Origin: an uncultured Woeseiaceae bacterium
Lineage (GTDB): Bacteria; Pseudomonadota; Gammaproteobacteria; Steroidobacterales; Woeseiaceae
DNA length: 43,977 nt
Direction: 5' to 3'
NCBI GenBank assembly: GCA_964522355.1
Contig: CAZFVT010000001.1
Location: 1 to 43,977 of the forward strand
Below, in pieces: positions 2 to 14,801 of this stretch. Made by a program: the position numbers and the translations under genes. The notes below the pieces were generated by a model, which saw only the letters and a program-made list of their open reading frames with translations, was not told the DNA's origin and did not search any database. The first letter of the stretch is position 1. The number at the start of each line of letters is the position of its first letter.

Positions 2-325
2 GGCAGCGCCCGCATCGACCCTCGCCTGCTGCGCAGGCGCGAGTTTGCGACCGACGCTCGCGAGTTCAGCTATATCGATGTCGACGATAGCAGCGATTCC
101 CTCGCGCTCGCTGCCGGCAGCATCGCGTTTACCTGGTGCCAAGTGCCTTTCGTTTACTCGCTCGGCGACGATGCCGAGGTGACGGTAACTTACGACGACG
201 GCAGCCAGACCTCAGACGGCTCGCTGGCGCTACCCGCCGAGATCTGCCCGGATATCTTCACGCGCAGCGGACGCGTCCGTCGCGTTGAGGTTCGCATTCC
301 CGCGGGCCTTCTATTGACCGACTAA
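2..325 (+). CDS. 3' end of an unidentified gene that starts upstream of the window
   Basis: Frame 2 is open from the window edge to TAA at 323-325. It ends 19 nt before the GH17 start, so it is probably in the same operon. No recognisable motif in the 107 visible residues. Confidence 0.4.
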   Translation, partial: GSARIDPRLLRRREFATDAREFSYIDVDDSSDSLALAAGSIAFTWCQVPFVYSLGDDAEVTVTYDDGSQTSDGSLALPAEICPDIFTRSGRVRRVEVRIPAGLLLTD

Positions 326-344: not shown

Positions 345-1232
345 ATGTCCAATTTCTATCAGCGGCGCCTGTCGCTCGCCGGTATCGACGTTTCGGGAAT
401 GTCTCTCGAAGACCTGAAGGCACTTGTTCGCAAGATGCTGGAAGACAAGATCCATGGCATCTCGTTCAGCCCCTATACCGAAGGCCAGGGCCCCGGCACC
501 CAAGTCCAGGCAGACCAGATCAACAGCCGGCTGGACATCATCAAACCCTACACCCAGTGGATTCGTACCTTCTCCTGCAGCGAAGGCAACGAACTGATGC
601 CGGCCATCGCCAAGGAATCCGGCCTCAAGACGCTGGTTGGCGTGTGGCTTGACGCCGACAAGGAGCAAAACGAAATCGAGCTTGCCAATGCCATTGAGAT
701 TGCGCAGGCCGGGCATGCCGACATCCTTGGCGTTGGCAATGAGGTACTGCTCCGCGGCGACCTGACGGAAGACGAGATTCTTGAGTACATCGCCCGCGCC
801 AAGGAAGGAGCCCCGGGTGTTCCCGTCGGCTACGTCGATGCTTACTTCGAGTTCAACGACCACCCGCGCATCGCCGATGCCTGCGACGTTATTCTCGCCA
901 ACTGCTACCCCTTCTGGGAGGGCTGCCCGGCCGAGCACGCGCTTCTCTATATGAAAGAGATGTATCGGCGAGCGCAGCACGCGGGCAACGGCAAGAAGGT
1001 CATCATCAGTGAGACGGGCTGGCCGAACATCGGAACGGCGGAGCGCGGCGCGGTGCCCTCGGAGGTAAACGCGATCAAGTACTTTATCGACACCTACCGG
1101 TGGGCCGAGGAAGAGGGCATAGAGATCTTCTGGTTCTCGTCCTTCGACGAGGCCTGGAAGGTCGATGCAGAAGGCGATGTCGGCGCTTACTGGGGTCTGT
1201 GGGATAAAGACGGCGTGCCCAAGTACTTCTAG
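345..1232 (+). CDS. Glycoside hydrolase family 17 (beta-1,3-glucanase or glucanosyltransferase), no signal peptide
   Basis: ATG with AAAGGA about 8 nt upstream. Clan GH-A/GH17-type motifs LGVGNEVLL (acid/base NE) and VIISETGWP (nucleophile E). The N-terminus MSNFYQRRLSLAGIDV has no hydrophobic leader. Confidence 0.85.
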   Translation: MSNFYQRRLSLAGIDVSGMSLEDLKALVRKMLEDKIHGISFSPYTEGQGPGTQVQADQINSRLDIIKPYTQWIRTFSCSEGNELMPAIAKESGLKTLVGVWLDADKEQNEIELANAIEIAQAGHADILGVGNEVLLRGDLTEDEILEYIARAKEGAPGVPVGYVDAYFEFNDHPRIADACDVILANCYPFWEGCPAEHALLYMKEMYRRAQHAGNGKKVIISETGWPNIGTAERGAVPSEVNAIKYFIDTYRWAEEEGIEIFWFSSFDEAWKVDAEGDVGAYWGLWDKDGVPKYF

Positions 1233-1282
1233 GCACCTGTCGCTTTATTCACCCGCGACTCATCACAATAGAGACCAAGGCT

Positions 1283-2209
1283 ATGGAATTCCAGCACGGC
1301 AACGCCATCTGCTATTCAGGCTACCGCGAAGGCCAGAGCCCGATTGACGGCACTTATCCAACGCGCGACCAGATCCGGGAAGACCTGCTGATCCTTCAGG
1401 GTCACTGGCAGTATCTGCGGCTTTACGACTGCAGTCCTCACGCGCAGATGGTGCTCGAGATCATCCAGACCGAAGGGCTCAACTTCAAAGTCATGCTCGG
1501 TCTCGATATGGCCGCTGAGATGAGTAACCCACATTGCCCGTGGGGAGCGGATTTCAGCGACGACGTGCTCTACGCGAATCGCGAGAAGAATGGGCGAGAG
1601 GCGAAGCGGCTGACGGAGCTCGCCAATGAATTTGCCGACGTCGTTTTCTCCGTGTCGGTTGGCAATGAGGCCAGCGTCGAGTGGACCGACCACATGGTTC
1701 CGGTCGAGAGCCTGATCGGTTACGTGCACGACGTGCGAAAGGCAATTGATCAGCCAATCACCTTCTGCGAGAACTACGTCCCCTGGACCTACAAGCTGGC
1801 GCCGTTGGCGGACGAGCTGGACTTCATCGCCATTCACACCTACCCCGCCTGGGAATACCGCTCCATTGAAGATGCATTGGAGTTCACCAAGGAAAACTAC
1901 CAGTCGGTGGTCGATCATTATCCGGGCAAGCCGGTCGTCATCACCGAAGCAGGCTGGACGACCGCGGCCAACGGTCGTGGCATAGAGCCGCACAATGCGT
2001 CGCAGGAGCTGCAGGCCGCCTATTATGAGCAGCTCATGGAGTGGTCAAACGCCGAGAAGATCCTGACCTTCGTGTTCGAAGCTTTTGACGAGCCGTGGAA
2101 AGGTTCACCCGACCCATTGGAACCCGAGAAGCACTGGGGACTGTTCGATGTCCATCGCAAACCCAAGCTGGTGATGCGCGATCGCTTCCGTAATCTCGCA
2201 AGCGCCTGA
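1283..2209 (+). CDS. Second GH17-like glycoside hydrolase, no signal peptide
   Basis: Same motif layout as the upstream paralog: SVSVGNEASVEW and VVITEAGWTT, with a C-terminal EKHWGLFD. Leaderless N-terminus MEFQHGNAICYSGY. 50-nt gap from the previous gene. Confidence 0.75.
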   Translation: MEFQHGNAICYSGYREGQSPIDGTYPTRDQIREDLLILQGHWQYLRLYDCSPHAQMVLEIIQTEGLNFKVMLGLDMAAEMSNPHCPWGADFSDDVLYANREKNGREAKRLTELANEFADVVFSVSVGNEASVEWTDHMVPVESLIGYVHDVRKAIDQPITFCENYVPWTYKLAPLADELDFIAIHTYPAWEYRSIEDALEFTKENYQSVVDHYPGKPVVITEAGWTTAANGRGIEPHNASQELQAAYYEQLMEWSNAEKILTFVFEAFDEPWKGSPDPLEPEKHWGLFDVHRKPKLVMRDRFRNLASA

Positions 2210-2227
2210 GTTCGCCCGGACAGTCCG

Positions 2228-4051
2228 CTACTCGATGAAGCGTATGCTGTCGAGGTAGAAGGTCACGGGCGTCCGCCCGGCCACCGTCGTTACGACAAAG
2301 CCAGTTTTGATCGACGACAGGTCCTTGCCCCTGAGTGAAATCTCGTAGCGGGTCCACTCGTTGCTCAGCACGATGTTGTCTTCTTTGGCAATCGCCGAAT
2401 CGGAATAGTCGTTCGACTCATCGAGGAGACCGACTCCAAAGCTCACACGCTCGCCGCCGTACTGACCTCGTGCCCACAGCTCCAGCGCGCGTGCCTTGCC
2501 GAGATCGTAGCCCCCGTCCTGTTCTCCCCAGTTGTTGGGCGGGTTCTGCCAGGCAACGCCGACCCAGCCTGCCCGGCCCTCGTAGCGCATGCGAATGCTC
2601 CGATCGCCTTCGTAGACCTGCTCGGCGGAATCGCCGTCAACCGTCAGGTTGCCGGTATCACCCATCCAACCGGAGGGTGTCCAGGGCATGAAGTCGAAGC
2701 CGTCCTCGTAGACCGGGAACGGCAGCCTGGTCGTCACCTCTCCCTTCACGAGCAGTGGCAGGTTGGCCGTGCCGGCATTGCCGTCTTCATCGTAGACGTA
2801 ATAGAACAATCGATAGGGCCCGGGATAGCTCGGCAGCCGAACGGAAACTCCCGTCACGTCAGACTCCAGAATCGCACTCTCGATGTCTGGCATGTCGGGG
2901 CGGTAGTCGCCGCCCTGCGGAATATCAGGCGTTTCCGGCCGCAGTGCCCAGCGAGCCGTCAGCGCACCGCCCTCAGGGTCCGACGCCGTCGCAGACACGG
3001 TTATCTCATCACCCGGCTCAAGCTCAACCGGGCCTTCGTAGGTTAGCGGTTCGACGGCCGGTGCACGATTCGCGGGTGCCGTGCCGCTCCACAGCTCGGT
3101 CATGGTGTCGACGGCGGCGAGCCTGGCCCCATCTTTAAGGAACATGCCGAACCAGGTTTCCGTGACCTCCATCTTGTTGCCCCACAGGAAGGCGTAGCTT
3201 CCGAGGGCGACGTCGCTAGCCTCGAGAATGCCCTTCTCGTAGCTTTGACGATAGAAGTCGGCCTTCTGGCTGCTGGTGCCTTCGTAGGCAGCACCCCAGG
3301 CGGTCTCGCCGACTTCCCAGAACCCCAGCGGTCCGAACTCGCCAAGAATAAAGGGCTTTGTTGCGCCGCCGTCTCGCAGGAACTGCGGAACGACACCGGC
3401 GCCGCCGTACGCGTTCACTCCATGAATATCGATCGCCGGCGATTTGTGATGCAGATATTCGATCCGGCCGCCGTGAACGAAGGTCGTTACGCTCATGGTC
3501 GGATGGTTCGGGTCGACCTCCTTGACCATCGCCGCGATGTCGTTGACCGCTTGCCAGATGGCCGGGTCGTCACCGTCCTCAAAGCCCTCCATCTCATTGC
3601 CGATGCCCCACAGGAGCAACGCCGGGTGGTCCTTGTAGCGCAGCACAATGTCGCGCGCACGATTGAACTGGGTCTCAACCTGCTCAGGGTCGTTGTAGTC
3701 GAAGCCGTGACGTTCGTGGCCGAGCCAGATGCCGACCGTTACTGTCAGACCCAGCGCATGCGCCTCATCCAGGATTACGCCGACGTCTTCGTTGCCCCTT
3801 ACGTTCTCGGCGTCCCAGGTACGAACGGAGTTGCCACCGGCAGCGGCGAGTGCTTCAAGCGAGTGGTCGCCACCGGCCCCGCGAATGAAATAAGGCTCTC
3901 CGCCGCGGAAGAGCTGCCAGCCCTCGTCGGTTTTGCGGAGCTCTACAGGTACCGCCTCGGCCATAACCAACCCGGATGAAAAAAAAGGCCCTGCTAGAAG
4001 CAGGGCCTTCAGAATTACGAGACTCTTGTAACGACCAAAGAGTCTCCTCAT
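2228..4051 (-). CDS. Secreted clan GH-A-like glycoside hydrolase (TIM barrel) with an Ig-like middle domain and a C-terminal CBM-like beta-sandwich; CAZy family not assignable by eye
   Basis: Sec leader MRRLFGRYKSLVILKALLLAGPFFSSGLVMA/EA. NE pair in WGIGNEMEG (codons at 3593-3598) and candidate nucleophile in FILGEFGP (E at 3338-3340). The C-terminal 150 aa are rich in W, G and aromatics, like a carbohydrate-binding module. The ATG overlaps the stop of the upstream gene (ATGA at 4048-4051). Confidence 0.8.
   Translation of the reverse strand: MRRLFGRYKSLVILKALLLAGPFFSSGLVMAEAVPVELRKTDEGWQLFRGGEPYFIRGAGGDHSLEALAAAGGNSVRTWDAENVRGNEDVGVILDEAHALGLTVTVGIWLGHERHGFDYNDPEQVETQFNRARDIVLRYKDHPALLLWGIGNEMEGFEDGDDPAIWQAVNDIAAMVKEVDPNHPTMSVTTFVHGGRIEYLHHKSPAIDIHGVNAYGGAGVVPQFLRDGGATKPFILGEFGPLGFWEVGETAWGAAYEGTSSQKADFYRQSYEKGILEASDVALGSYAFLWGNKMEVTETWFGMFLKDGARLAAVDTMTELWSGTAPANRAPAVEPLTYEGPVELEPGDEITVSATASDPEGGALTARWALRPETPDIPQGGDYRPDMPDIESAILESDVTGVSVRLPSYPGPYRLFYYVYDEDGNAGTANLPLLVKGEVTTRLPFPVYEDGFDFMPWTPSGWMGDTGNLTVDGDSAEQVYEGDRSIRMRYEGRAGWVGVAWQNPPNNWGEQDGGYDLGKARALELWARGQYGGERVSFGVGLLDESNDYSDSAIAKEDNIVLSNEWTRYEISLRGKDLSSIKTGFVVTTVAGRTPVTFYLDSIRFIE
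3979..4009 (-). terminator. Intrinsic-terminator-like hairpin plus U8 tract, embedded in the signal-peptide codons of the 2228-4051 gene
   Basis: The minus-strand RNA reads AAGGCCCUGC-UUCUA-GCAGGGCCUU followed by UUUUUU(UU). The stem is 3985-4009 and the A-run on the + strand is 3979-3986. This is the only 8-nt homopolymer A/T run I found in the window. Confidence 0.45.
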
Positions 4052-4806
4052 AACTCGATGACCGAAACCACACCGTCGTTGAACAGCGGCGGGGTGGCCG
4101 GGAGGTAGTTGTATCCCCAGTCCAGTAACAGGCTCAGCACCAGGATTCGATCACCTTCGACGAGCGGCAGGAAACCGGTAGCTTCAGGTCGATAGAGATT
4201 ATCCGCGGTCAGCTGGTTGAGGCTGACGGGAAAGGGTACCGGCTCTCCATCCGGGCTGGATGCCGGACAGCAGGTGAAGACCGTCGCCGAACTGAAGAAG
4301 TTATCGAGAACAGACTGGTACGCCCTGAGCGCCTGCTCACGAATCAGCTCATCCTTGCTAAGCACGTTGCTGTTGGCGTCGAACAACTCGTGGAGTGCCA
4401 GCGCGGTGTAGAACTGATTCTCACCGGACTGTCTGCGTGCCAGTGCCGTTGCCCAGAAGTAGAAGCGCGCCTTGGCGCCCTGCGGTCCCGCCGGGATGGA
4501 GTTAAAGAGCTCGAACTTGTTCTCAGCGCCCGGGTTGTTCGGGTCAAACTCGCTGATTGGCGTGTTGGCGAACGGGTTTTCCGGATCTTCCAGAACGCAG
4601 GTTTCGTTGTAGATGCCTACGTCCGCGCAGTAGAGACCGAGTACGACGTCGGTCGGCAGGATGACCTGGTTGATGATCGTGCCGTCCGTTTCGTCGCGTT
4701 CCCCGTTGTTCTCACAACCGCTAATGCCCAGAACTGCCACCAGGACGATCGCAAGGAATCCCCTGGCGGAAGCCGACTGAGCCGTGAATCGATTAACGTT
4801 TTTCAT
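4048..4806 (-). CDS. Lipoprotein of unknown function, predicted mostly helical, encoded directly after the GH-barrel gene
   Basis: Start chosen at MKNVNRF (ATG 4804-4806; the ORF track starts at 4830). Lipobox VLGISG-C. No catalytic motif recognised. The stop overlaps the next start (ATGA). Confidence 0.7.
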   Translation of the reverse strand: MKNVNRFTAQSASARGFLAIVLVAVLGISGCENNGERDETDGTIINQVILPTDVVLGLYCADVGIYNETCVLEDPENPFANTPISEFDPNNPGAENKFELFNSIPAGPQGAKARFYFWATALARRQSGENQFYTALALHELFDANSNVLSKDELIREQALRAYQSVLDNFFSSATVFTCCPASSPDGEPVPFPVSLNQLTADNLYRPEATGFLPLVEGDRILVLSLLLDWGYNYLPATPPLFNDGVVSVIEL

Positions 4807-4840
4807 GATTGCATAACCTCGGCAAAGCAAGCTTCAAAGC

Positions 4841-7800
4841 TTAGAAGTTGTAAGTGAAGTAACCAAGAACCAGGAACGAGTAGTCGTTCTGGCCGTCGAG
4901 GAATTCCTCGTCCGGCGAGTTCTCGTCGCTGGTGCGGAAGGTCGTTCGAATGCCAATCCTGGTTGCCGTCTGCTCGGCAATAGCGTTCGACACCGCACCG
5001 AAACCTGCGCCCAGCCACATGGAGTAGTCCAGCTGGATCTGTTCCGGGAAGGTGATGTTGAACTGCCGGAAGAAGTCATAAGGACCAAATCCATCCTTCC
5101 GGAAGTAGCCGGTCAGCGTGTGCTTGCCGTTACCCCAGATAGCACGACCGCTGAGGTTCCAGAACTTGCGCGTGCCGCCGTTCGGATCACCAGTCGACTG
5201 CTGGAATCCGCGCTCAACCCGGAGGATGTAGCGGTTCTTGTTCGAGGTGTTCCAGATTGCCCGGCTCGATAGTGACCAAACGTCTTCAGCCGGGAGGCCC
5301 TGGCCGAACGGCGCGTTGGCACCCGCCGGCTCGAAGAAGAACAGCTCGGAGTCCGTCTGGGTCGGGAATTCGGTGTAGGTGCCGCCGAAGTTGAACGCGA
5401 AGCTCGCGTCCTCACGCCAGTCGTTGTCCCAGTCGTAGAACGGCGTTGCGCCGGTCGGATCCCAGGTGAAGTAGATCTCGGCCGAACGTGCTTCGCGGTT
5501 GCCGAGAACGGCGAACGGGTCGTCGTCTCGGTTACGCGGGCTGATGCCGGGATTCAGGACGCCATCGACAATCTCAGGCTCGATAAACGGATTGGCGTGT
5601 ACCAGGTTGTCGCGATACATGATGCGCGGGAAGATCATCCAGTTGCCCAGGAAGATCTGCGAGCCCAGCTGATATTCGACGCGGTTACCCAGTGCGCTGT
5701 AGGGCAGTCGGCTCGGATCGGTCACACCGTAGGTCGGGATAGCCGCAACGGCTTCCGATACCAGGCCGGCGTAGGTGCCTTCGAGGTAGGTCTGCGTTCC
5801 CATGAACGGGAACGACAGGCGGCCTTTAAACGACAGCGTGTCTTCGAAATCGATCTGGTCGATGAAGATGTTGCCCTGCCTGTCGACACGGTCGAAGGTC
5901 TCGTCGATACGCTCCGGTGCCGAAACCATGGCGCCGAACTCCAGCTCCATGCCGTTAGAGAACTCCTTGGCGCCTGCCAGGGTGGTCTGCCTGGACTGGC
6001 GAACCGTCGCCTGGGTGAAGTTTGCACCCTGACCGAGTCGCGCGACGTCTTCCGAGTGGATGAAGGTCCAGTCGATGCTACCCAGGTTGAAGTCATACTT
6101 GACGATGAACTTCGGGTTGGCACCCCAGTAGACCTCCGGGCCGACAACAACCTTGAGGTTGCTCCACTTGCCCTTGCCGGCAAATTCGATGCCCTGCGGC
6201 GCCTTGGCGTCCCAGATGTCGATGCCGACGATATCGGTGGCTTCGGCAACGAGGCCGAAGAAGTCACCCTCATACTTCCAGTGGAATCGTGGCGTGTGGT
6301 AGAACGCCGTCGCATCGAAGTTCTCACCTTCGTAGGTCGCCTCGAAGTCGTAAATTTCGACTCGCTCGCGGTCGCTGAAGGTTACCGTCTCTTCCTGTAC
6401 CTCGACGAGACCACCGAAGAAGTTGTTCACGGTCTCGGCCTGGATGGTCAACGGCAGGCCGCGGTCACCGTAGTTGAACTCCAGTGGACGCTTGCGAGCG
6501 ACGTTGCCCAGCAGGTTGACCGTGAACTGTCCGGAGAGGTTCTCGGTCGGGTTGAAACCGAAATCGAGGAAGACCATCTGGCCGTCGGAGAATTCGACGC
6601 CGTCTTCACCCAGCTCGGTAACCTCCTGCTCGCGACCGCGGAGGGCGAACTCACCCTGGAAGCGACCGCCGGTGAACTGCAGCTTCTTGCTGGCTTCGTA
6701 GTTTTCACTTTTCAGCTTGTCGACTTCACCGCGCAGCTCGAGGAACTCGAGATTCATGTCGGCGAAGGCAGCGTTGATCTGGCCTTTGCTGGAGCCGTAG
6801 GGATCGATGGCAAACGCCTCAGACAGCACGTGATAAGCCATACGCGGGCGGGCGATGGACACGCCTTCGGCGTTCGTCGGACCGAGGGCCACAACTCCGA
6901 ACCACTCTTCGTTCATGTTGTTCTGGCCGGGAGCCCAGTCGAACAGATAGGCCTGGTTGGACCAGGAGGCGTTGGTGTCCTGGGTCTCGAGGTTCTCGGT
7001 CTGCAGGTACTTCCACCACTCATCGCGCCATTCAAAGACGAAGGCGCCAATCGCGTTACCTTCCTCGCCGTTGCCCCAGGCCTTGTTATACATCTCCTGC
7101 CACTGGTCCTTGAGGATCAGTGCCTGGGAAACCTGGTCTTCCTGGAACTCGCGGGCGTTGAAGGCATCGCTGCCGAACTCGAAGAACGCGACCGGCAGGT
7201 CCAGCTTCTCATCAACGGTCGCCCAGAGGTCCGTGAAGCTCGGTCCGCGGTAGACGTTGCTGCCAAGAATATCGAGCGAGGGCATTAGCTCAGCGATCAG
7301 ATCGATGTACTGAACGTCACCGTTAACGATCGTGAACAGGTGATCGGGTGCAATGGACTTGCCTTCCTGGATGACCTCTTCGAACAGGCTGTACAGGAAG
7401 CGTGCCTTGGCCGTGTTCTGCTCGCCTTCCGGCAGGTTTTCGATCTCGAAGCTGGACCAGGACAGGCCGTAGTTACTTTCGTTACCGAAGGCAAACATGA
7501 TTACCCCGGGCGTGTCCTTGTAGCGGCGGACGAAGTCGCCCATGTCGCGCTTCAGGATTTCGCGGGTTGTCGGGTCCGAATAGTCGGTGAACGGCACCCA
7601 CTTGCCGTTAATCGTGTAGCCGTAGCGACCCATCAGCGGGTTGATCACCGACATGATGCCGTATTCGCGATAGATGTATTCCACCCACTGCGGCGGGATC
7701 ATCGTGAAGCTACGAATCGTATTGACGCCGGCGTCGCGCAGCAGGCTGAAGTCGTAGTCCAGGATGGCGCGAATCTGCTCGTCACTCTGGCCAAACAGGT

Positions 7801-8014
7801 TGTAGGTGTAAGTCTGCCCGCGCGGCGAGTAGCTCCACACCATGCCCTTCATGAAATAGTCCTCGCCGTCGACCTGCAAACGCCAGCCCTGGTCATCTTT
7901 GACGGTCTTGACGTCGTGATACTGCGCGTGGACTGCCGGGGCACTCAAAAACAGCATGAGCGCGAGAAGTCCCCCGACTTCTTTCATTCTCGCGATTGCC
8001 CGTGATTTCGCCAT
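4841..8014 (-). CDS. Fusion protein: N-terminal clan GH-A-like TIM-barrel domain plus a C-terminal ~600-aa outer-membrane beta-barrel-like region, with no TonB plug
   Basis: Start chosen at MAKSRAIARMKEVGG (8014; the ORF track starts at 8068; 7987 is also possible). Sec leader ends AVHA/QY. NE in FAFGNESNYG (7478-7483) and FEFG (E at 7178-7180) parallel the 2228-4051 enzyme. The C-terminal part shows alternating aromatic/hydrophilic strands and ends LVLGYFTYNF, a terminal Phe typical of OMPs. Confidence 0.8.
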   Translation of the reverse strand: MAKSRAIARMKEVGGLLALMLFLSAPAVHAQYHDVKTVKDDQGWRLQVDGEDYFMKGMVWSYSPRGQTYTYNLFGQSDEQIRAILDYDFSLLRDAGVNTIRSFTMIPPQWVEYIYREYGIMSVINPLMGRYGYTINGKWVPFTDYSDPTTREILKRDMGDFVRRYKDTPGVIMFAFGNESNYGLSWSSFEIENLPEGEQNTAKARFLYSLFEEVIQEGKSIAPDHLFTIVNGDVQYIDLIAELMPSLDILGSNVYRGPSFTDLWATVDEKLDLPVAFFEFGSDAFNAREFQEDQVSQALILKDQWQEMYNKAWGNGEEGNAIGAFVFEWRDEWWKYLQTENLETQDTNASWSNQAYLFDWAPGQNNMNEEWFGVVALGPTNAEGVSIARPRMAYHVLSEAFAIDPYGSSKGQINAAFADMNLEFLELRGEVDKLKSENYEASKKLQFTGGRFQGEFALRGREQEVTELGEDGVEFSDGQMVFLDFGFNPTENLSGQFTVNLLGNVARKRPLEFNYGDRGLPLTIQAETVNNFFGGLVEVQEETVTFSDRERVEIYDFEATYEGENFDATAFYHTPRFHWKYEGDFFGLVAEATDIVGIDIWDAKAPQGIEFAGKGKWSNLKVVVGPEVYWGANPKFIVKYDFNLGSIDWTFIHSEDVARLGQGANFTQATVRQSRQTTLAGAKEFSNGMELEFGAMVSAPERIDETFDRVDRQGNIFIDQIDFEDTLSFKGRLSFPFMGTQTYLEGTYAGLVSEAVAAIPTYGVTDPSRLPYSALGNRVEYQLGSQIFLGNWMIFPRIMYRDNLVHANPFIEPEIVDGVLNPGISPRNRDDDPFAVLGNREARSAEIYFTWDPTGATPFYDWDNDWREDASFAFNFGGTYTEFPTQTDSELFFFEPAGANAPFGQGLPAEDVWSLSSRAIWNTSNKNRYILRVERGFQQSTGDPNGGTRKFWNLSGRAIWGNGKHTLTGYFRKDGFGPYDFFRQFNITFPEQIQLDYSMWLGAGFGAVSNAIAEQTATRIGIRTTFRTSDENSPDEEFLDGQNDYSFLVLGYFTYNF

Positions 8015-8084
8015 AGCGACTACTCTTTTATGGAGTTGATTGTTGTGTTTGTCATTGGTTGCGCACATGTCTTCATCGCCCCCG

Positions 8085-10625
8085 TCAGTCGATCGTTATC
8101 GACACGTTGTCGATGTACATGTCCTGAGCGCAACCGACAACGTCACCGCAGGCTGCGATCCACTGAATCGTGATACCTCCGGACGCGTCAGGACCGGTTG
8201 TCACGTTGTAGGTGCGCGTCTCCCAGTTCGCGATGCTGGCGGTGATTGACTCAAGAAACTCGTTCGTTGGCGGGTTATTGCTGTCATTCTCGGTCAGAAA
8301 CTCGATGTTGAAAGCCGCGCCCGGCTGCGTGATCGTGCCGCGAACGTCAAAGCGGATGGTCAGGTCCTGATTGGCCTGCACGGTGCCGACAGCGATACGC
8401 TCGAACTTGGCGGTTGGCGCTGCTGGCGCCGGCCCCGAGCCCGAGTACGAGTTCACAAGGTTCAGCGAGTACGTCCCAGACGACGGGTTGTTGGTCGATA
8501 CCGCGATGGTTCCGTCGTTCGGGAAATTCGTCCAGCCACTCTCGTCACCGGTCTCGAGATCGCCGTTGGTAACCAGGTTTCCGCCCGGCGCCGGCGGAGT
8601 GCCGCCGCCGGAATCGTCCTCGATGAGGGTCACGTCATCAATATCGACCGTGCTGGCGACCGTGCCGAGGTCGAACAGTGCACGGCTCTCGGCAACGCCG
8701 ACGCCCGTGCCCGAGTTCAGTTCCAGCGTGTAGGTCTGCCATTCGGTGGTTATCGCCACGTCCTGCGTTACCGAAGTGAACGGTGCACCGCTGAGGCCAA
8801 TGCCCGCGACGATATTGCGGTCGACCGTCGCCCTGGCGCGGAACGTCAGGGTGTAGTCGGTCTCCGTCTCGATCGCGGCAACCTGGCTCAGATTGGTATC
8901 GAAGACGTTACCGCCGGCCGCGGTGTCGACACTATAGAAGTTGTTCGTCGCCACGCCTCCGGCGTTGTACCACGGTGCCTTGTCCATTGTGCTGGTCTGG
9001 AAGTCGCCGTTCGTAAGCAACTCTGCTCCTCCCCCGGCTGCCACGAAGGAAACGTCATCGATATTCACGGTGCTCGCTACGGTGCCAAGGTCGAACAGCA
9101 CGCGGCTCTCGACCGGACCAATGTCAGCGCCGGTGTTGACGTTAAGCGTATAGGTCTGCCACTCCGTGCCGATCGACACAACCTCGGTCACCGAGACGAA
9201 CGGCGCCCCGCTCTGCCCAATGCCCGCCACAATGTCGCGGGCGACTGACGCTTTCGCCCGGAAAGTCAGGACGTAATCCGTACTCGCAGTCATCGCTGCG
9301 ACCTGGCTAAGGTTGGTGTCGAACACATTGCCGCCATCGGCCGCGTCAACCGTATAGAAGTTGTTCACCACAACATCACCGGCGTTGTACCAAGGCGCCT
9401 TGTCGGTATCGCTATCCTCGAAGTCCCCGTTGCTCAGCAGCGAGGAAGGACCGGGACCCGGACCAGGCCCGGGGCCGGGACCTCCGCCGCCAGCGCCGAC
9501 GGCAAAATCGTCGAAGTAGTAGGTCTGCGCGCCCGCGGTGGCACCATCGGTCCCAAAGTTCGGGAAAATGGTGATCTTGTTGTAGACCGCGGCCGGATCG
9601 TAGGCCGGCGTGCCGGACGCCTGCATGGAGAAGTCGAATTCGAGCGTCTCCCAGGTATCCGCCATCGTCGTCAGGGCTTCGGTTTCGACCGCCACGTCCC
9701 CATCCAGGGCATTCTCGACTTTCAGCCGAATGGGAACGTTCATCCCCGGGCTGCGAACCCGGACATTCATCCGAGGATCGGAGTCGTCGAGCGGAATATC
9801 CGGTACCGCTTCGTTCGGGCCAAGGGAAACGACGGTGCCTGCGAACACTTCAGCAGAGTCTGAACGGTTGTGTCGAACGACTTGGTTTGCAGCATCGTCC
9901 GGATCCGCAACTATCGACGAATCGTCACCGCCAGCGAAGCCTCGAACGCTGTAGGTCAGATCAGGGTCATCGAAGGTTATCGTGCTCCAGGTTGGCGGCA
10001 GCACGGGCCCGCCTTCACATTCTTCGACCTGCAGAATGTCGTCGTAGAAGAACGTCCAGTTCATTGGGTCGGTGTCGGCCTGGCCCAGCGTGCCATCGTC
10101 AAAGATAAGCGTTAGCCCGGCGTTCGGAATGTCGTTCGTGCGGCCCGTAAAGTCGTAACAGAGCTCTTCCCATTCGCCGCTTCCACTGTGGCGGAGAACG
10201 TCCTCGACGTTTTGCTGATCGAGTTTGAAGGTCAGAGCAACCGAGCGCGGTGACCAGACCTTGATGGTGAACGCTGCGCCTTGCGAGAAGTCATACGGCG
10301 TCCCTGTGTCGAGTAGCGTTCCACCGAACACCTGGTCGGGAAATTTCTGCATCTGAGCAACAGTGTCACTCGGGTTCAGATCGTTTTGATCCGGGTTCGG
10401 AATGACGGTTGTCGCACCACCGTTGAAGTTGATGATGTTGACCGCATCGCAGAGGATCTCGAAGTTGATCGCGTCGCAGAAACCCGGCGGAATCGGCGGC
10501 AGTGGCGTTGCCGGTTCGTTGGGAATGGATACCGGCCCGTCACCCTGGCCGCAGGCGGCAAGGATCGAGAGGGCGGCTAAGGACGTCAGCGAGCGCTTCA
10601 GGCGCGAGATGGCTGGTGCGTGCAT
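8085..10625 (-). CDS. Non-catalytic multi-CBM surface glycan-binding lipoprotein candidate
   Basis: Start chosen at MHAPAISRLKRS (ATG 10623-10625, GAGAA upstream). Lipobox LSILAA-C. Two N-terminal CBM-like beta-sandwich modules are followed by a (GP)6 linker, two tandem 140-aa CBM4/9-like modules (NGDFE...W) and a third 164-aa module. No hydrolase motif was seen. Confidence 0.8.
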   Translation of the reverse strand: MHAPAISRLKRSLTSLAALSILAACGQGDGPVSIPNEPATPLPPIPPGFCDAINFEILCDAVNIINFNGGATTVIPNPDQNDLNPSDTVAQMQKFPDQVFGGTLLDTGTPYDFSQGAAFTIKVWSPRSVALTFKLDQQNVEDVLRHSGSGEWEELCYDFTGRTNDIPNAGLTLIFDDGTLGQADTDPMNWTFFYDDILQVEECEGGPVLPPTWSTITFDDPDLTYSVRGFAGGDDSSIVADPDDAANQVVRHNRSDSAEVFAGTVVSLGPNEAVPDIPLDDSDPRMNVRVRSPGMNVPIRLKVENALDGDVAVETEALTTMADTWETLEFDFSMQASGTPAYDPAAVYNKITIFPNFGTDGATAGAQTYYFDDFAVGAGGGGPGPGPGPGPGPSSLLSNGDFEDSDTDKAPWYNAGDVVVNNFYTVDAADGGNVFDTNLSQVAAMTASTDYVLTFRAKASVARDIVAGIGQSGAPFVSVTEVVSIGTEWQTYTLNVNTGADIGPVESRVLFDLGTVASTVNIDDVSFVAAGGGAELLTNGDFQTSTMDKAPWYNAGGVATNNFYSVDTAAGGNVFDTNLSQVAAIETETDYTLTFRARATVDRNIVAGIGLSGAPFTSVTQDVAITTEWQTYTLELNSGTGVGVAESRALFDLGTVASTVDIDDVTLIEDDSGGGTPPAPGGNLVTNGDLETGDESGWTNFPNDGTIAVSTNNPSSGTYSLNLVNSYSGSGPAPAAPTAKFERIAVGTVQANQDLTIRFDVRGTITQPGAAFNIEFLTENDSNNPPTNEFLESITASIANWETRTYNVTTGPDASGGITIQWIAACGDVVGCAQDMYIDNVSITID
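8607..9446 (-). repeat. In-frame tandem duplication of a 420-nt (140-aa) CBM-like module
   Basis: The Phe codon of NGDF(E/Q) is at 9420-9422 in unit 1 and 9000-9002 in unit 2, exactly 420 nt apart. Shared blocks include KAPWYNAG, NNFY-VD, GGNVFDTNLSQVAA, IVAGIG-SGAPF, TEWQTYTL and LFDLGTVASTV-IDDV. Confidence 0.85.
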
Positions 10626-10772
10626 GGTCGGATTCTCTAATTTGGTGTTTGAGTTTCTTGTGCGTCGTTCTGCGATGCCTGACTGAATTCCACCCTGCGG
10701 CGAAATCTGCCGCAGCACTCTGTTGGAAATCATCGATCCATCCCGACGATCTTCGGTTTCATGTTGCGGACA

Positions 10773-13307
10773 TCAATCGATCGTGATTGAAACGTTGTCG
10801 ACGAACATGTCTATTGAGCAGCCGTCGACATCACCACAGCCTGCGTTCATTTGCAGAGTCACGCTGGTTGCGTTCGGATCAGTCGTGATGTTGTAGGTTC
10901 GTGTTTCCCAGTCGGCGATGCTTTCAGTAATCGTTGCGAGAGTATCCGGAGGCGGAGCCGTTCCGGAGTCAACCTGCGTAAAGAGCAGTATGTTGAACGC
11001 CGCACCGGGCTGGTTGATTGTGCCGCGAACATCAATGGAAACCGTGATCGCCTGATTGCCTTCTATTACTCCCATGCCGACGTTTTCGTTTCTTGAGGTC
11101 GGAGACCCCGGCGCAGGTGCCGGCGAGCCTGCATAGGCAATGTTGTAGTTGAGCGAGTACATGCCGCTCGACGGGTTGTCGGTAGACACGCCGACAGTGC
11201 CGTCGCCCGCTCCGGTTACCCAACCGGTCGTGTCGCCGGTTTCCAGGTCGCCGTTAGTGACCAGGTTGCTGTCGCCTGCCCCGCCTTCGGTGGAGAAGTA
11301 CACGTCGTCGATATACACCGTGCCGAATGCCAGTGCGTCCATGCTGTCTTTCGGATTCCAGAAGCCGAGATTGGCCGCGGTATCGAAAGTCGTCGCCGGG
11401 AAATCGGCCAGCGGAATCGCATAGGTCGCCCAATTACCAGACATGACCGGCGTGTAGGCAGACAGCAGGACATTGGTGCCCGCCGCGCCGGCGCCCGGCG
11501 GTTCGATCTGCACGGTCAGGTCGCCGAAGTCGGCAATACCGGAGGTATCGATCGTGAAGTTCAAGGTGTCGTAGGCCGTCAGGTCCACGCTGCCGAAGCC
11601 AAGGAGAACGCCGCCGAAGGACGAGCCGCTGTCCTGGTAATCGACCTCGAGGACGACGCTGCCCTCAGGAGCAGGAACCGCCATGCTCATGGGGTTTGCA
11701 ACCGTATTGTTGCCGCCGAAATCGATGCTGTTGGTAAAGCCGGTCACGGTGATCGGCGCCTCGGTCATCGTTTCGGTGAATACGCCCGCAGTGCCTGGGC
11801 CGTGATCGGCGAAGAAGCCAGTGAAGCCGATGTCCGTTAGCAGATAGCTGAACGGCGCGCCCTGGTTACCCAGCGGTCCGATGAGGAAGCCGCTGTTGAC
11901 GGGCGTCGTGGCGATGAAATCAGACATCGGAATCTCGACTTGCAGCCAGCCGTCGCCGATATCAGTAGCGCCTTCGTAGGTAGTCAGGTCATAGACCACG
12001 CTGGTGTCGCCACCGTTGATGAACTTGACCTCCCATTCGTCGAGGTTCGCTTCGTCACCCTTGACCTTGAAGACCAGGTTTTCAAAGTTCTGAGCAAAGC
12101 CTTCGGCGTAACCATTAAAGGCGATGAAGCCGACATGAACGCCGGCGCCATAGCCTTCGCCGCTGGTTACCTGGATGGCCGGATTAAAGGCGTCATCCAT
12201 GGCGTAAGCGGTGTCAAATACCGCGCCGGAGCCGAAGTTATCGATGGCAGGCGGTGCCAGGTCTTCCTCAACGTCGGGATCCGTCGCGTAGACGACGCCT
12301 TCGGGCAGGATGTCGCCCGGGCGGCCGCCTGAGTAGACGCGAACATAGTCAACCTTCATCTCGGCCGGGAGGGCCAGGTCTGAATCCGGCTGGCCGGGGA
12401 ATTCACCGCCGACGGCCAGGTTCAGGAGAATGTGGAAGGGCTGGTCAAACGGTGCCGGGTACGGCGCTGCCGTAGAGAACCAGTTGTTCTGGACCGCGTA
12501 CAGCGTGTCGTTGAAGTACCAGCGGATCTCGTTCTCTTCCCACTCCACTGCGTACAGGTTGAAACCCGCGGTTACGTCTACCGAGGGCGTGAACTCCACG
12601 CTGGTGTTTTCCTGGTTGGGGAACTCGCCACCGTAGTAGATGGTGCCGAAAATGTTGTTGCCACCGCCCTTCGCGAACTCGGGCGGAACGTCCTGGCGTG
12701 GCACACCGCCCAGGTTGACGGCCTCCATGATGTCGATTTCGCCGGTTGCCGCCCAGCTGCCGTACGGGCTGTCCTGGGAAAGCATCCAGAATGCCGGCCA
12801 GAGGCCCTGGCCCGCCGGAAGCCGGATGCTGGCCTCAATTCGGCCGTACTTGAAGGCAAAACGGTCCTGCGTGTTCAACCTGGCAGAGGTGTAGTTAAAG
12901 CCGGCGATGCTCTCGCGCTGCGCGGTAATCGTGAGAATGCCGCCCTCGACGCTGGCGTTGTCAGGCAGGTAGTACTGCAGCTCGTTGTTGCCCCAGCCCG
13001 GCGGCAAGCCCTGCTCGTCGCCGTCGCCCGTAGCGAAGAACCACTTTTCCGGGTCAATGGAGTTGCCGTTGAACTCCTCGCTCCATACGAGCTCCGGTTC
13101 CTGGCCCATCATTACCGGGAAGGTCCGCGGAATCTCCAGCGTCGGATCGCTGATGTTCTGGTTGTTCTGCGGGATATCTGGCGTCGCGTCCGGAATCGGT
13201 GTTACCTGTGAAAACACCGGTTCGCGGCCGTTGTCGACACAGCCTAGCGTGAGTACGAGCGCGGAAATAGACAGCGCAACAGATGCGCGTCGTCGTAGAC
13301 GTAGCAT
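10773..13307 (-). CDS. GH16 endo-beta-1,3-glucanase (laminarinase) with three C-terminal CBM-like modules; probable lipoprotein
   Basis: Start chosen at MLRLRRRASV (ATG 13305-13307 with GGGGGGA upstream). The leader ends LTLG-C. Canonical GH16 catalytic motif TGEIDIME at 12723-12746, plus WPAFWML. The C-terminal 164 aa are paralogous to the end of the 8085-10625 protein. Confidence 0.92.
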   Translation of the reverse strand: MLRLRRRASVALSISALVLTLGCVDNGREPVFSQVTPIPDATPDIPQNNQNISDPTLEIPRTFPVMMGQEPELVWSEEFNGNSIDPEKWFFATGDGDEQGLPPGWGNNELQYYLPDNASVEGGILTITAQRESIAGFNYTSARLNTQDRFAFKYGRIEASIRLPAGQGLWPAFWMLSQDSPYGSWAATGEIDIMEAVNLGGVPRQDVPPEFAKGGGNNIFGTIYYGGEFPNQENTSVEFTPSVDVTAGFNLYAVEWEENEIRWYFNDTLYAVQNNWFSTAAPYPAPFDQPFHILLNLAVGGEFPGQPDSDLALPAEMKVDYVRVYSGGRPGDILPEGVVYATDPDVEEDLAPPAIDNFGSGAVFDTAYAMDDAFNPAIQVTSGEGYGAGVHVGFIAFNGYAEGFAQNFENLVFKVKGDEANLDEWEVKFINGGDTSVVYDLTTYEGATDIGDGWLQVEIPMSDFIATTPVNSGFLIGPLGNQGAPFSYLLTDIGFTGFFADHGPGTAGVFTETMTEAPITVTGFTNSIDFGGNNTVANPMSMAVPAPEGSVVLEVDYQDSGSSFGGVLLGFGSVDLTAYDTLNFTIDTSGIADFGDLTVQIEPPGAGAAGTNVLLSAYTPVMSGNWATYAIPLADFPATTFDTAANLGFWNPKDSMDALAFGTVYIDDVYFSTEGGAGDSNLVTNGDLETGDTTGWVTGAGDGTVGVSTDNPSSGMYSLNYNIAYAGSPAPAPGSPTSRNENVGMGVIEGNQAITVSIDVRGTINQPGAAFNILLFTQVDSGTAPPPDTLATITESIADWETRTYNITTDPNATSVTLQMNAGCGDVDGCSIDMFVDNVSITID

Positions 13308-13377
13308 TGAATCCCCCCAAATTGCACGAACAGAGAAGGTTCTGGGCCTTCTCGCTTTCGCTAGTGGTACCAAGTCA

Positions 13378-13391
13378 TGACAGCGTTGTCA
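13378..13391. promoter_or_regulatory. Operator-like palindrome TGACAGCGTTGTCA overlapping a minus-strand TTGACA box upstream of the GH16 operon
   Basis: 13 of 14 positions are palindromic. It lies about 70 nt upstream of the GH16 ATG. It is a near copy of the perfect palindrome at 14941-14954. On the minus strand it reads TTGACAACGCTGTCA. Confidence 0.5.
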
Positions 13392-13479
13392 ATAATTTTG
13401 GTTTTTCCGCGCCACGGGGTGAGGCCCCGGCGACGAATCGTCGGGGTCTCGAATTTGAGGTTTGGCGCTGGCCGACGGC

Positions 13480-13704: not shown

Positions 13705-13883
13705 GATTACTCTCCATAGTGAAATCGGCTCGGGGAGCCGGTCCATCCGTCGGCACCCTTGCCGACGCTGCAGATAGTGGGGATTTCACCCGTGCTTCAC
13801 AAAGGGAGAAAACTCATATCTCGGATGAGAAAATTTCACAGACCGGAGCAAAGCGTCGCTCTCAGGCGACATGACATAAGTGA

Positions 13884-14801
13884 CTACCTGCCCGCGGCCC
13901 GTGTCGGACTTTGCGGCTCAGCAAACCGCGCCAGTATCCAGTCGCGCAGGCCCGCGACGCGATCTGCGCTCTCGTCGGTGGCCTGCCAGACGAGGAAATA
14001 GCTCATGTCAGTAACGAGCGGCTCCTCGAAGAGGGGAACGATCGTCTTCTGGCGAAACCACTGCTCCGCAATGGGAATCGGCACCAGGGCGGCGCCAATG
14101 CCCTGCTCTGCGGCGCGCACGACGGCAATCATCGAATCCAGCCGTGTAGCCTTGCTGTCTTCGGGAAACTCGATGCCGGTCGCGACCGACCACTGGCTCC
14201 AGGCTTTGGGAAACGACTCGTGCACAATGATCGGGAAGCGGCTGTTAATGCGCTTCTCAGTCACTTTGAGAGATTTGCTGAAATCTCGGGATCCCGCCGG
14301 CATGAGCTTCAGCGGAAACAGCAGGCGCGATTCAACGTTCTTCGGTGGCGTCCGGAACAATCGGATGGAAAGGTCGGCGTCCGCGGGGTGACTTTCGGCA
14401 CTCTCATCGCTGGCGGACACATCGATGTCCAGATCCGGATTGGCGTCGGTGAACTCCCCCAACCGCGGCACGAAGAACTCGCTGGCGAAAAAAGGCTGCA
14501 CCGACACGCGTATCGAGCGACGCTTCGGCCCCTCGCGATAGTTGCTGACGACCCGATCCATCTGCTCGATCAGCGGACCCACTTCGGCATAGAGGGCCTG
14601 CCCGGTCGGCGTGAGCTTAAGCTCGCGAGCATGACGATCGAACAGGCGCTGCCCGAGCTCCTCCTCCAGGCTCTTGATCTGGTGGCTGACGGCAGACGGT
14701 GTGATGAACAGCGCATCACCGGCAGCACTGAAGCTCTCATGGCGCGCGGCGACGCAAAAGGTACGCAAGCCGCGGAGCGAAGTCGTTTGTCGTGTCTTCA
14801 T
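13884..14801 (-). CDS. LysR-family transcriptional regulator
   Basis: N-terminal wHTH LRTFCVAARHESFSAAGDALFITPSAVSHQIKSLEEELG and a C-terminal substrate-binding fold of typical length (305 aa). Divergent from the transporter gene. Confidence 0.9.
   Translation of the reverse strand: MKTRQTTSLRGLRTFCVAARHESFSAAGDALFITPSAVSHQIKSLEEELGQRLFDRHARELKLTPTGQALYAEVGPLIEQMDRVVSNYREGPKRRSIRVSVQPFFASEFFVPRLGEFTDANPDLDIDVSASDESAESHPADADLSIRLFRTPPKNVESRLLFPLKLMPAGSRDFSKSLKVTEKRINSRFPIIVHESFPKAWSQWSVATGIEFPEDSKATRLDSMIAVVRAAEQGIGAALVPIPIAEQWFRQKTIVPLFEEPLVTDMSYFLVWQATDESADRVAGLRDWILARFAEPQSPTRAAGR

Follow-up and report, generated by a model that had tools for sequence, protein, structure and literature searches.

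A laminarin utilisation locus encoding a predicted outer-membrane barrel fused to a glucanase-like domain

How does a bacterium bring a beta-1,3-glucan across its outer membrane when the genes that break the glucan down are not accompanied by a TonB-dependent transporter (TBDT)? This question is raised by a gene cluster on a contig of an uncultured Woeseiaceae bacterium (GCA_964522355.1, contig CAZFVT010000001.1, positions 1 to 43,977; this whole stretch of about 44 kb is referred to here as the window). A preliminary description, made from sequence alone, proposed that five co-directional genes in this window form a Sus-like, TonB-independent operon for the capture of beta-1,3-glucans. The cluster is real, and its central gene encodes a glucanase-like enzyme domain fused to a very large, uncharacterised barrel, predicted to lie in the outer membrane, that is found in hundreds of species from many phyla. 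The locus is therefore a good candidate for a new way of taking sugar chains across the outer membrane, although that role is still inferred.

The first step is to establish what the cluster contains. The five minus-strand genes, here called A to E, are present as described, and are listed with their neighbours in Table 1. The gaps between them depend on the start codon chosen, and are 39-147 nt between A and B, 16-70 nt between B and C, and 10-34 nt between C and D. There is one true ATGA overlap, at the D/E junction, so the earlier claim of several such overlaps is slightly overstated. The arrangement is not due to chance, as the gene content and order recur in dozens of genomes. The cluster also extends past the left edge of the window, into a phosphorylase gene of which only the 3' end is seen.

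Table 1. Features of the glucan cluster and its flanks (L followed by a number denotes a relative; lipoboxes and signal peptides were read from the translations)
Position	Strand	Feature	Evidence
2..322	+	3' end of a GH149 beta-1,3-oligosaccharide phosphorylase gene, cut by the window edge	tblastn of the 1153-aa neighbour from L001 matches here (42% identity, E = 1e-22); that protein matches PDB 6hq6, a beta-1,3-oligosaccharide phosphorylase, at E = 0
345..1232	+	GH17 beta-1,3-glucanase or transglycosylase, presumed cytoplasmic	Pfam Glyco_hydro_17, E = 2.8e-13; N-terminus MSNFYQRRLSLAG has no signal peptide on inspection
1283..2209	+	Second GH17	Pfam Glyco_hydro_17, E = 1.4e-6, just above the curated cut-off; no signal peptide on inspection
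2228..4051	-	E: predicted secreted GH158 endo-beta-1,3-glucanase (TIM barrel plus Ig-like domain, residues 31-435) with C-terminal CBM-like module (residues 436-607)	phmmer to PDB GH158(Pro) 9oro, E = 9.4e-101 over residues 31-435, and to BuGH158 6pal, E = 5.3e-53; weak CBM_4_9 hit in the tail, E = 0.014; signal peptide ...GLVMA/EA
3984..4010	-	Terminator-like hairpin (12-bp stem followed by T8), 38 nt after the D stop and inside E's signal-peptide codons	RNA fold of 3970-4060(-) gives -38.5 kcal/mol, z = -5.3; conserved in L084, L001, L003, L006 and L033, with arm changes GG..CC, AG..CU and AA..UU that preserve pairing
4048..4806	-	D: 252-aa lipoprotein of unknown fold (ORF 4048-4830, likely start 4806)	Lipobox LGISGC; four conserved non-lipobox Cys, with C60, C70, C179 and C180 invariant; 1100 homologues, all unnamed and without Pfam domains
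4841..8014	-	C: 1057-aa secreted fusion protein (ORF of 1075 aa, 4841-8068; homologue consensus supports the start at 8014)	Signal peptide ...SAPAVHA/QY; more than 3176 full-length homologues; AlphaFold mean pLDDT 79.9; mature protein has no Cys
6794..7921	-	C N-terminal domain (residues ~50-425): divergent GH158-like clan GH-A TIM barrel	HHalign of the C family against the E family, probability 99.0%, E = 5.7e-18; top Foldseek hits GH158 structures 9p26 and 6pal, E = 1e-11
6680..6793	-	C linker (residues 426-463), including a 22-residue helix (440-461) immediately before the first barrel strand	DSSP on the model; least conserved segment, mean column identity 0.36
4844..6679	-	C C-terminal domain (residues 464-1075): predicted large outer-membrane beta-barrel, about 28 long strands, ending in Phe	DSSP shows all-beta structure at high pLDDT; exists as a standalone secreted protein
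8085..10625	-	B: lipoprotein made only of CBM-like modules (about five), no catalytic domain (ORF 8085-10733, likely start 10625)	Pfam CBM_4_9, E = 8e-16, two stretches; PDB 1gui, the beta-1,3-glucan-binding CBM4 of Thermotoga Lam16A, E = 5.5e-5; lipobox SILAAC; C-terminal 165 aa 58% identical to A's C-terminus
10773..13307	-	A: GH16 laminarinase lipoprotein followed by three CBM-like modules (ORF 10773-13373, likely start ATG 13307)	Pfam GH16 (PF00722); PDB laminarinases 3azx, E = 3e-53, and 4dfs, E = 1e-52; intact ExDxxE catalytic motif (EIDIME, residues 212-217); lipobox LTLGC
13884..14801	-	LysR-family regulator, divergent from the MFS gene	Pfam HTH_1 plus LysR_substrate; conserved next to the cluster in relatives
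15012..16457	+	MFS_2 (GPH-type) sugar symporter, presumed inner-membrane importer	Pfam MFS_2, E = 4.9e-65

Every assigned enzyme, binding and import gene in this set maps to beta-1,3-glucan chemistry. Protein E is a clear member of GH158, as its GNE (E153) and EFG (E238) motifs, the acid/base and nucleophile of clan GH-A, align with the corresponding motifs of both solved GH158 enzymes and are invariant in 17 homologues. The N-terminal domain of C is homologous to the GH158 catalytic domain and retains the catalytic pair, with G195-N196-E197 and E297-F298-G299 invariant in 72 of 72 homologues from at least eight phyla. However, single-sequence phmmer searches give only E = 0.003-0.02, and the Ig-like domain typical of GH158 is replaced by the linker helix and the barrel. 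The domain is thus best called a divergent GH158-like clade.

What, then, is the rest of protein C? Its C-terminal 610 residues meet the general description of an outer-membrane barrel protein, with a signal peptide on the whole protein, an all-beta domain predicted at high confidence, and a terminal residue that is Phe in 42 and Leu, Ile or Met in 25 of the 72 sequences. Foldseek gives a probability of 1.0 to TBDTs, LptD, MtrB, AlgE, OccAB3, chitoporin and FimD, but none is close (TM normalised by target ≤0.42). No Pfam hit was found at E ≤ 5, nor any NCBIfam relative, and a profile search of PDB sequences returned nothing at E ≤ 10. In particular, C has no Plug (PF07715) or TonB_dep_Rec (PF00593) signature and is not recognised as a TBDT or SusC; it has no Autotransporter signature; and it shows neither the Pfam signature of, nor a close structural match to, the sugar porins LamB, OprD/Occ, KdgM or chitoporin. 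The most conserved motifs of the barrel (H596, G601, D602, D617, D870, W880, D881, E886) lie outside the predicted strands.

The preliminary description had also suggested comparing related loci, and this comparison shows that the association of C with glucan degradation is general. At least 589 species genomes from at least eight phyla encode C, so the cluster type is not restricted to the proteobacterial background in which it was first noticed. GH16 is present in 41 of 41 loci with full flanks, MFS_2 in 21 of 41, and GH17 in 18 of 41. The neighbouring GH16 carries a lipobox in most of the non-gammaproteobacterial loci whose GH16 N-terminus could be read, across Cloacimonadota, Krumholzibacteriia, Gemmatimonadota, Desulfuromonadales and Myxococcota. 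The order of C followed by D is conserved in 47 of 67 loci, but D is missing from about 30% and is absent from Gemmatimonadota, Krumholzibacteriia and Fibrobacteraceae loci. Consequently, C plus GH16, rather than a barrel followed by a lipoprotein, is the universal core. The barrel also occurs on its own. Standalone versions of 575-600 aa with their own signal peptides sit between an SBP_bac_5 ABC importer with LacI and a GH16, in Marinobacterium sp. xm-a-152 and in a metagenome contig, which is the position expected of an uptake channel.

TBDTs, by contrast, are rarely found near C. No Plug or TonB_dep_Rec hit was detected in any window ORF of 200 aa or more, and a jackhmmer search seeded with two Pfam-confirmed TBDTs found none in the window. 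Among 80 loci, a TBDT lies within about 10 kb in three (L004, L061 and L070), and in L004 it is about 8 kb from C. Nevertheless, TonB-independence is an inference from 44 kb of one genome, and a TBDT encoded elsewhere could carry out uptake. A 2025 study reports a single SusC-type gene in 7 of 11 Woeseiaceae laminarin clusters (PMC12175321).

The interpretation first placed on the locus is therefore only partly supported. The evidence supports a beta-1,3-glucan catabolic cluster, an outer-membrane barrel plus lipoprotein pair built from parts unrelated to SusC/SusD, the lack of a TBDT in the window, and an outside-to-cytoplasm route that can be read from the genes. The terms ‘TonB-independent’ and ‘Sus-like’ are plausible but unproven, and surface exposure of A and B is likewise not shown. 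Protein D is not SusD-like by any test applied: it has no Pfam or NCBIfam hit, including SusD/RagB, its AlphaFold model has a pLDDT of 45, and Foldseek finds nothing at E < 1. Lastly, because a conserved terminator-like hairpin lies between D and E, the unit may be A-B-C-D with attenuated read-through into E, rather than a plain five-gene operon.

The explanation that best fits these observations, to which we give a probability of roughly 0.55, is that C is the glucan or oligosaccharide channel of the locus, with a tethered glucanase. In this view, the lipoproteins A and B would bind laminarin and cut it, and chains or oligosaccharides would cross the outer membrane through the C barrel. The tethered glucanase domain, most likely at the periplasmic mouth as for the N-terminal domains of other large barrels, and the soluble GH158 E would then shorten them, keeping an inward gradient without TonB. 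The MFS_2 symporter would import the products, the two GH17s and the GH149 phosphorylase would finish degradation in the cytoplasm, and D would be an accessory lipoprotein partner of C in most lineages. The analysis itself demonstrates the domain identities, the barrel fold at the level of a predicted model, the conservation of the catalytic motifs, the synteny, and the local absence of a TBDT. Channel function, the substrate, the orientation of the enzyme domain, contact between C and D, and independence from TonB are all inferred, since they rest on genomic association and on models rather than on functional data. A more far-reaching but doubtful possibility is that the C family is a new class of outer-membrane glycan translocon, in which whole laminarin chains or long oligosaccharides are threaded through the barrel and pulled or trapped by a periplasm-facing, possibly processive GH158-like domain, helped by CBM lipoproteins. 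Import would then be driven by hydrolysis and binding rather than by TonB, as an alternative to SusCD for ‘selfish’ polysaccharide uptake.

Other roles for C remain possible, though each appears less likely. The barrel could merely anchor or export the enzyme domain for display at the cell surface, in the manner of an autotransporter, with products entering through an unlinked TBDT or a general porin. This unlikely but not negligible alternative draws support from the helix directly before the first strand, which a type Va autotransporter passenger would also have, from the precedent of GluM, described as an outer-membrane beta-barrel protein with glucanase activity in Corallococcus, a non-Bacteroidota bacterium, and from the SusC-type genes in some Woeseiaceae clusters and the TBDTs near C in three relatives. 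However, a pure anchor would have no reason to persist alone, whereas barrels with no enzyme domain occupy the same kind of GH16/importer loci, and their non-strand motifs are strongly conserved even in standalone forms. Moreover, the barrel, with about 610 residues and about 28 predicted strands, is far larger than the 12-16 strands of type V translocators.

It is also conceivable, but improbable, that the genes form a loose cluster of carbohydrate-active enzymes in which C and D have a role unrelated to transport, such as moving A and B to the surface (Slam-like) or remodelling the cell envelope. The constant co-occurrence of C with a GH16 that is usually a lipoprotein, and the presence of D, a lipoprotein of unknown fold, are compatible with this. 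Yet the GH16 next to the standalone barrel in Marinobacterium-type loci has a type I signal peptide rather than a lipobox, and the idea does not explain why a catalytically conserved glucanase is fused to the barrel. Least likely of all is that C and D belong to a beta-glucan export apparatus analogous to PgaA/PgaB, BcsC/BcsZ or AlgE/AlgL, which pair a barrel and a lipoprotein with a hydrolase. The architecture is similar, AlgE is among the Foldseek hits, and GH17 enzymes can act as transglycosylases. Nonetheless, no synthase or glycosyltransferase appears in the operon or in any inspected neighbourhood, the GT2 and flippase at 27-30 kb of the window belong to a separate sugar-nucleotide cluster, and the neighbours of C are catabolic or import genes, namely GH149 phosphorylase, GH3, MFS or ABC importers, and LacI or LysR regulators.

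Laminarin is one of the largest carbon fluxes in the ocean, and how bacteria outside the Bacteroidota move such glycans across the outer membrane is poorly understood. The C family, which is uncurated, has thousands of members, ranges from Gammaproteobacteria to Cloacimonadota, Gemmatimonadota, Myxococcota and Fibrobacterota, and is genetically locked to GH16 laminarinases, could fill that gap. If the barrel is the uptake channel, prediction rules for polysaccharide utilisation loci that require SusC/D or a TBDT are missing a widespread system, and an enzyme fused to its own channel would be a new design for coupling depolymerisation to transport. Several cultured carriers exist, among them Lentisalinibacter orientalis YNA5901, Thioalkalivibrio sp. 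XN279 and Marinobacterium sp. xm-a-152.

Comparison with known systems helps to separate what is new from what is not. Laminarin clusters with GH16, GH17, GH149 and GH158 are already reported from sediment Gammaproteobacteria of the same family (PMC12175321). That work lists CAZy families and the presence of SusC, and no description of C or D was found in the passages searched; database homologues are labelled only ‘hypothetical’, ‘beta-galactosidase’ or ‘GH2 TIM barrel-domain containing’. Relative to the characterised GH158 endo-beta-1,3-glucanases (BuGH158, PDB 6pal; the processive GH158(Pro), PDB 9oro/9p26; PMC13195107), E is a full member, while the C domain shares the TIM-barrel fold and both catalytic Glu positions but is only about 26% identical in profile alignment, lacks the Ig-like domain, and carries three invariant family-specific insertions (residues 78-100, 198-217 and 348-389) that AlphaFold cannot place. 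GluM is the homologue of M. xanthus Oar, and C has no CarboxypepD_reg, Plug or TBDT-barrel Pfam signature, so the two are treated here as different families on the basis of these signatures rather than of a direct sequence comparison.

LptD/LptE and MtrB/MtrA, 26-strand barrels with a partner protein inside the lumen, give the highest query-normalised Foldseek TM scores (0.26) and are likewise very large barrels encoded next to a small lipoprotein or partner protein. No homology to them was found, their substrates are different, and no evidence places D inside C. The Bacteroidota SusC/SusD loci for beta-1,3-glucan, such as the Bacteroides uniformis locus with BuGH158 and GH16, share the division of labour and the enzyme families: a GH16 endo-glucanase lipoprotein, a non-catalytic glycan-binding lipoprotein, an outer-membrane barrel next to a lipoprotein gene, GH158, and an inner-membrane importer under a local regulator. 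They differ in that C shows no Plug, TonB box or TBDT-barrel signature, D has no SusD signature, and the barrel carries an enzyme domain. The substrate-specific sugar channels LamB/ScrY, chitoporin ChiP, CymA and KdgM/NanC are TonB-independent barrels encoded with the catabolic and import genes for one glycan, and the standalone barrel beside an SBP_bac_5 ABC importer is a comparable arrangement. No sequence or close structural relationship to these channels was found, and the C barrel is much larger, with about 28 predicted strands against 12-18, and in most members is fused to an enzyme.

Five minus-strand open reading frames, here designated A to E, fill positions 2228-13373. Protein A is a lipoprotein (lipobox LTLGC) with a GH16 domain that matches solved laminarinases at E 3e-53 and retains an intact EIDIME motif. 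This domain is followed by three modules, each ending in the CBM-like strand pattern, the last of which is a weak CBM_4_9 hit. Protein B is also a lipoprotein (ILAAC), and its only recognisable parts are CBM_4_9 modules, one of which matches the beta-1,3-glucan-binding CBM4 of Thermotoga Lam16A. A and B end in the same 165-aa module, which is 58% identical between them and carries a conserved Cys pair in each, suggesting module exchange or a shared docking or binding function. Protein C is a fusion of an enzyme-like domain and a predicted outer-membrane barrel, while D is a 252-aa lipoprotein (ISGC) with no family hit. Protein E is a secreted GH158, at E 9e-101 to the processive GH158(Pro) and 5e-53 to BuGH158, and carries a weak CBM_4_9-like tail. 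Gaps between the genes are 10-147 nt, depending on the start codons chosen, and D and E overlap by ATGA.

Other genes of the cluster lie on either side. Two GH17 genes without signal peptides are encoded on the other strand, and the very edge of the window encodes residues matching the last 109 aa of a GH149 beta-1,3-oligosaccharide phosphorylase, so the laminarin cluster continues beyond the window. A LysR regulator and a divergent MFS_2 symporter follow A. An NlpE-like lipoprotein and a rhomboid protease lie directly beside the MFS gene, without an established link to the locus. Further away, a sodium:solute symporter gene overlaps by 4 nt the gene for an 869-aa PIG-L deacetylase with an NPCBM_assoc domain, which may be a second, unrelated glycan or amino-sugar uptake pair. 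Rfam and tRNA scans of the window found nothing, and a scan of positions 1-17000 for sigma-70 promoters was uninformative, returning 0 sites against 3.9 expected by chance.

Coordinates of the features discussed in the text (positions refer to the window unless a comparison locus is named)
Feature	Position	Strand	Remarks
GH149 phosphorylase, C-terminal ~109 aa	2-322	+	Left edge of the window
E	2228-4051	-
Terminator-like hairpin	3984-4010	-
D	4048-4806	-
C	4841-8068	-	Likely start 8014
C, insertion at residues 348-389	6902-7027	-
C, insertion at residues 198-217	7417-7476	-
B	8085-10733	-	Likely start 10625
Module shared by A and B	8088-8582 and 10776-11270	-
A	10773-13373	-	Likely start 13307
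NlpE-like lipoprotein and rhomboid protease	17546-18337 (-) and 16610-17527 (+)
705-aa CarboxypepD_reg-like lipoprotein	18259-20376	-
Sodium:solute symporter and PIG-L deacetylase	20691-24973	+
E start region in L084	10238-10330		91%-identical relative
CBM9 + DUF5916 proteins	L066 7267-9618, L070 7519-9729, L075 6420-8801		Longimicrobiales loci

No open reading frame of 200 aa or more in the window has a Plug or TonB-receptor hit, and a jackhmmer search seeded with two Pfam-confirmed TonB-dependent transporters (TBDTs) likewise found none in the window. The 705-aa open reading frame has a CarboxypepD_reg hit and was considered as a hidden TBDT. However, it is a lipoprotein with a CxxCH haem-binding motif (GCVGCH) and has no barrel or Plug hit, so this reading was rejected. 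It has no PDB or NCBIfam relative. The observation made in the preliminary description, that of a beta-1,3-glucan gene block without a TBDT in the window, is therefore confirmed.

The block may nevertheless not be a plain five-gene operon, as had been claimed. A strong terminator-like structure, consisting of a 12-bp hairpin followed by T8, lies 38 nt after the D stop and within the codons of E's signal peptide. It recurs between D and E in L084 and in four further relatives (loci L001, L003, L006 and L033), with arm changes that preserve pairing. This suggests an A-B-C-D unit with partial termination before E, such that the hairpin may attenuate transcription into E. In L084, the gene caller started E 29 codons late and so removed the signal peptide, which is restored by an upstream GTG. 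Database annotations of the localisation of E-type GH158 proteins may therefore be unreliable.

The structure of C was predicted with AlphaFold2 using 77 homologues, which gave a mean pLDDT of 79.9. The model has three parts: a TIM-barrel domain (about residues 50-425); two helices, the second spanning residues 440-461; and, from residue 464 to the C-terminal Phe, about 28 long beta-strands at high confidence. Foldseek places the N-domain nearest the GH158 crystal structures (E 1e-11). The C-domain matches a broad set of outer-membrane barrels with probability 1.0, including TBDTs, LptD, MtrB, AlgE, Occ channels, chitoporin and FimD, but none is close, and the best query-normalised scores are for the 26-strand LptD and MtrB. 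Attempts to name the barrel found nothing: there is no Pfam hit even at E<=5, no NCBIfam hit, and no PDB relative in a search of PDB sequences with a 22-sequence profile. The barrel carries conserved aromatic and acidic motifs and a conserved loop at residues 591-624.

A profile-profile comparison of the C family with the E family gives 99.0% probability (E 5.7e-18) and shows three C-specific insertions. In 72 full-length homologues from all phyla sampled, G195-N196-E197 and E297-F298-G299, the positions of the GH158 acid/base and nucleophile, are invariant. Many aromatic and acidic residues of the insertions are also invariant. Two of the insertions (for example, SNYGLSW and NNMNEEW) are invariant across at least 8 phyla, yet AlphaFold cannot place them, as residues 198-217 and 348-389 have pLDDT below 50. 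They may be interaction or substrate-tunnel surfaces. Judged from sequence conservation, the enzyme domain is thus almost certainly active, and it has conserved surfaces of unknown purpose.

The family is widely distributed. More than 3176 proteins match C over its full length, all of them unnamed or misnamed, and at least 589 GTDB species genomes encode it. These include Woeseiaceae and other Gammaproteobacteria (Lentisalinibacter, Thiothrix, Leucothrix), Cloacimonadota, Fibrobacteraceae, Gemmatimonadota, Krumholzibacteriia, Myxococcota, Desulfuromonadales and Delongbacteria. Cultured carriers include Lentisalinibacter orientalis YNA5901, Thioalkalivibrio sp. XN279, Wenzhouxiangella sp. XN24 and Myxococcus or Corallococcus, as well as Marinobacterium sp. 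xm-a-152 for the standalone barrel. Among the 80 loci fetched, D lies directly downstream of C in 47 of the 67 where the position is visible. Among the 41 loci with at least 8 kb on both sides, GH16 is present in 41, D in 29, MFS_2 in 21, GH17 in 18, an E-type GH158 in 13 and a B-like protein in 13. GH149 and GH3 genes are frequent neighbours, whereas TBDT-like open reading frames occur in only 3 of the 80 loci. In Gemmatimonadota, and in Krumholzibacteriia and related phyla, D is absent, and C is followed by GH3, or by GH16 on the opposite strand. The universal core is therefore C plus GH16.

Among 27 non-gammaproteobacterial loci inspected, the neighbouring GH16 has a lipobox in most cases where its N-terminus could be read. 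In Cloacimonadota (loci L022-L031 and L038), the GH16 lipoproteins next to C begin with Cys-Asp followed by an acidic, Pro-rich stretch (for example, CDTMTDPDPVDD). This resembles the Bacteroidota lipoprotein surface-export signal and hints at surface exposure in that phylum. Longimicrobiales loci that carry C also encode nearby CBM9 + DUF5916 proteins ending in ...KAF, that is, a carbohydrate-binding module fused to an uncharacterised domain that, judging only from its C-terminal aromatic ending, may be an outer-membrane barrel.

The barrel is also an autonomous module. A search of 1.8 billion cluster representatives with residues 430-1075 of C found 287 clusters. Most are fusions of about 1000-1100 aa, but several are proteins of 560-620 aa that begin with their own signal peptide and run straight into the first barrel strand. 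A follow-up search shows this standalone subfamily in Marinobacterium sp. xm-a-152 and in marine MAGs. In two contigs, the gene order is an SBP_bac_5 ABC importer (five genes), LacI, the standalone barrel and then GH16, with no D and no TBDT, and the GH16 there has a type I signal peptide. A barrel that persists without the enzyme, in the slot between the importer and the glucanase, is best explained as the outer-membrane passage for the substrate.

The reading favoured here, with a probability of about 0.55, is that C is the glucan or oligosaccharide channel of the locus, with a tethered glucanase. The gene content, the conserved catalytic positions and the local absence of a TBDT emerge directly from the analysis, whereas the channel role, glucanase activity and TonB-independence are inferences, as are the orientation of the enzyme domain and any contact between C and D. 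The interpretation offered in the preliminary description, that of a TonB-independent, Sus-like uptake system, is thus supported only in part. In the channel reading, the enzyme domain is most likely periplasmic, as are the N-terminal soluble domains of large barrels such as BamA, LptD, the ushers, PgaA and BcsC. If so, cleavage at the exit would keep the permeant species scarce and could ratchet a threaded chain inward. The closest solved relative of E is an endo-processive enzyme that releases laminaribiose (PMC13195107). A and B could then act either on the surface, as originally proposed, or from the inner leaflet on imported chains. D is conserved at 66-88% identity among its 120 best-matching homologues, with four invariant Cys. 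It is probably a partner of C, although an AlphaFold model built with 46 homologues reached a pLDDT of only 45, and Foldseek found nothing significant.

Alternative readings carry less weight, but not all can be dismissed. A helix immediately upstream of strand 1 is also the autotransporter arrangement, so surface display of the enzyme domain cannot be excluded. The loop-length pattern in the DSSP string puts the start of strand 1 on the short-turn (periplasmic) side, but this fits both a periplasmic domain and a helix threaded through the pore, and so does not discriminate. The strongest argument against the barrel being a mere anchor is its persistence as a standalone protein. A role in exopolysaccharide export was rejected for lack of any synthase in the operon or in any inspected neighbourhood and because the neighbours are catabolic. 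A more far-reaching possibility, that C represents a glycan translocon driven by hydrolysis or binding, is held to be less likely than not, but would be categorically new.

The locus is of more interest than a routine CAZyme cluster, and this interest lies in protein C and its family rather than in the 'Sus-like' analogy. Woeseiaceae laminarin clusters with GH16, GH17, GH149 and GH158 were reported in 2025, with a SusC-type gene in 7 of 11 (PMC12175321), and the cluster as a laminarin locus is therefore already known. In contrast, no description of the barrel fusion, its partner D or the standalone barrel was found in the literature searched, and searches for an enzyme-barrel fusion, a laminarin porin or a TonB-independent PUL returned nothing relevant. 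GluM of Corallococcus, described as an outer-membrane barrel glucanase, was considered as a homologue of C. GluM is the homologue of Myxococcus xanthus Oar, and C has no CarboxypepD_reg, Plug or TBDT-barrel signature, so GluM is treated as an analogue only, on the basis of these signatures rather than of a sequence comparison. Functionally, the locus parallels the Bacteroides beta-1,3-glucan PUL (GH16, GH158, binding lipoproteins, and a barrel next to a lipoprotein), although C fails every TBDT test and D every SusD test. It also parallels sugar porin systems such as LamB, ChiP and CymA in being TonB-box-free and co-encoded with importers, but it is unrelated to them and much larger.
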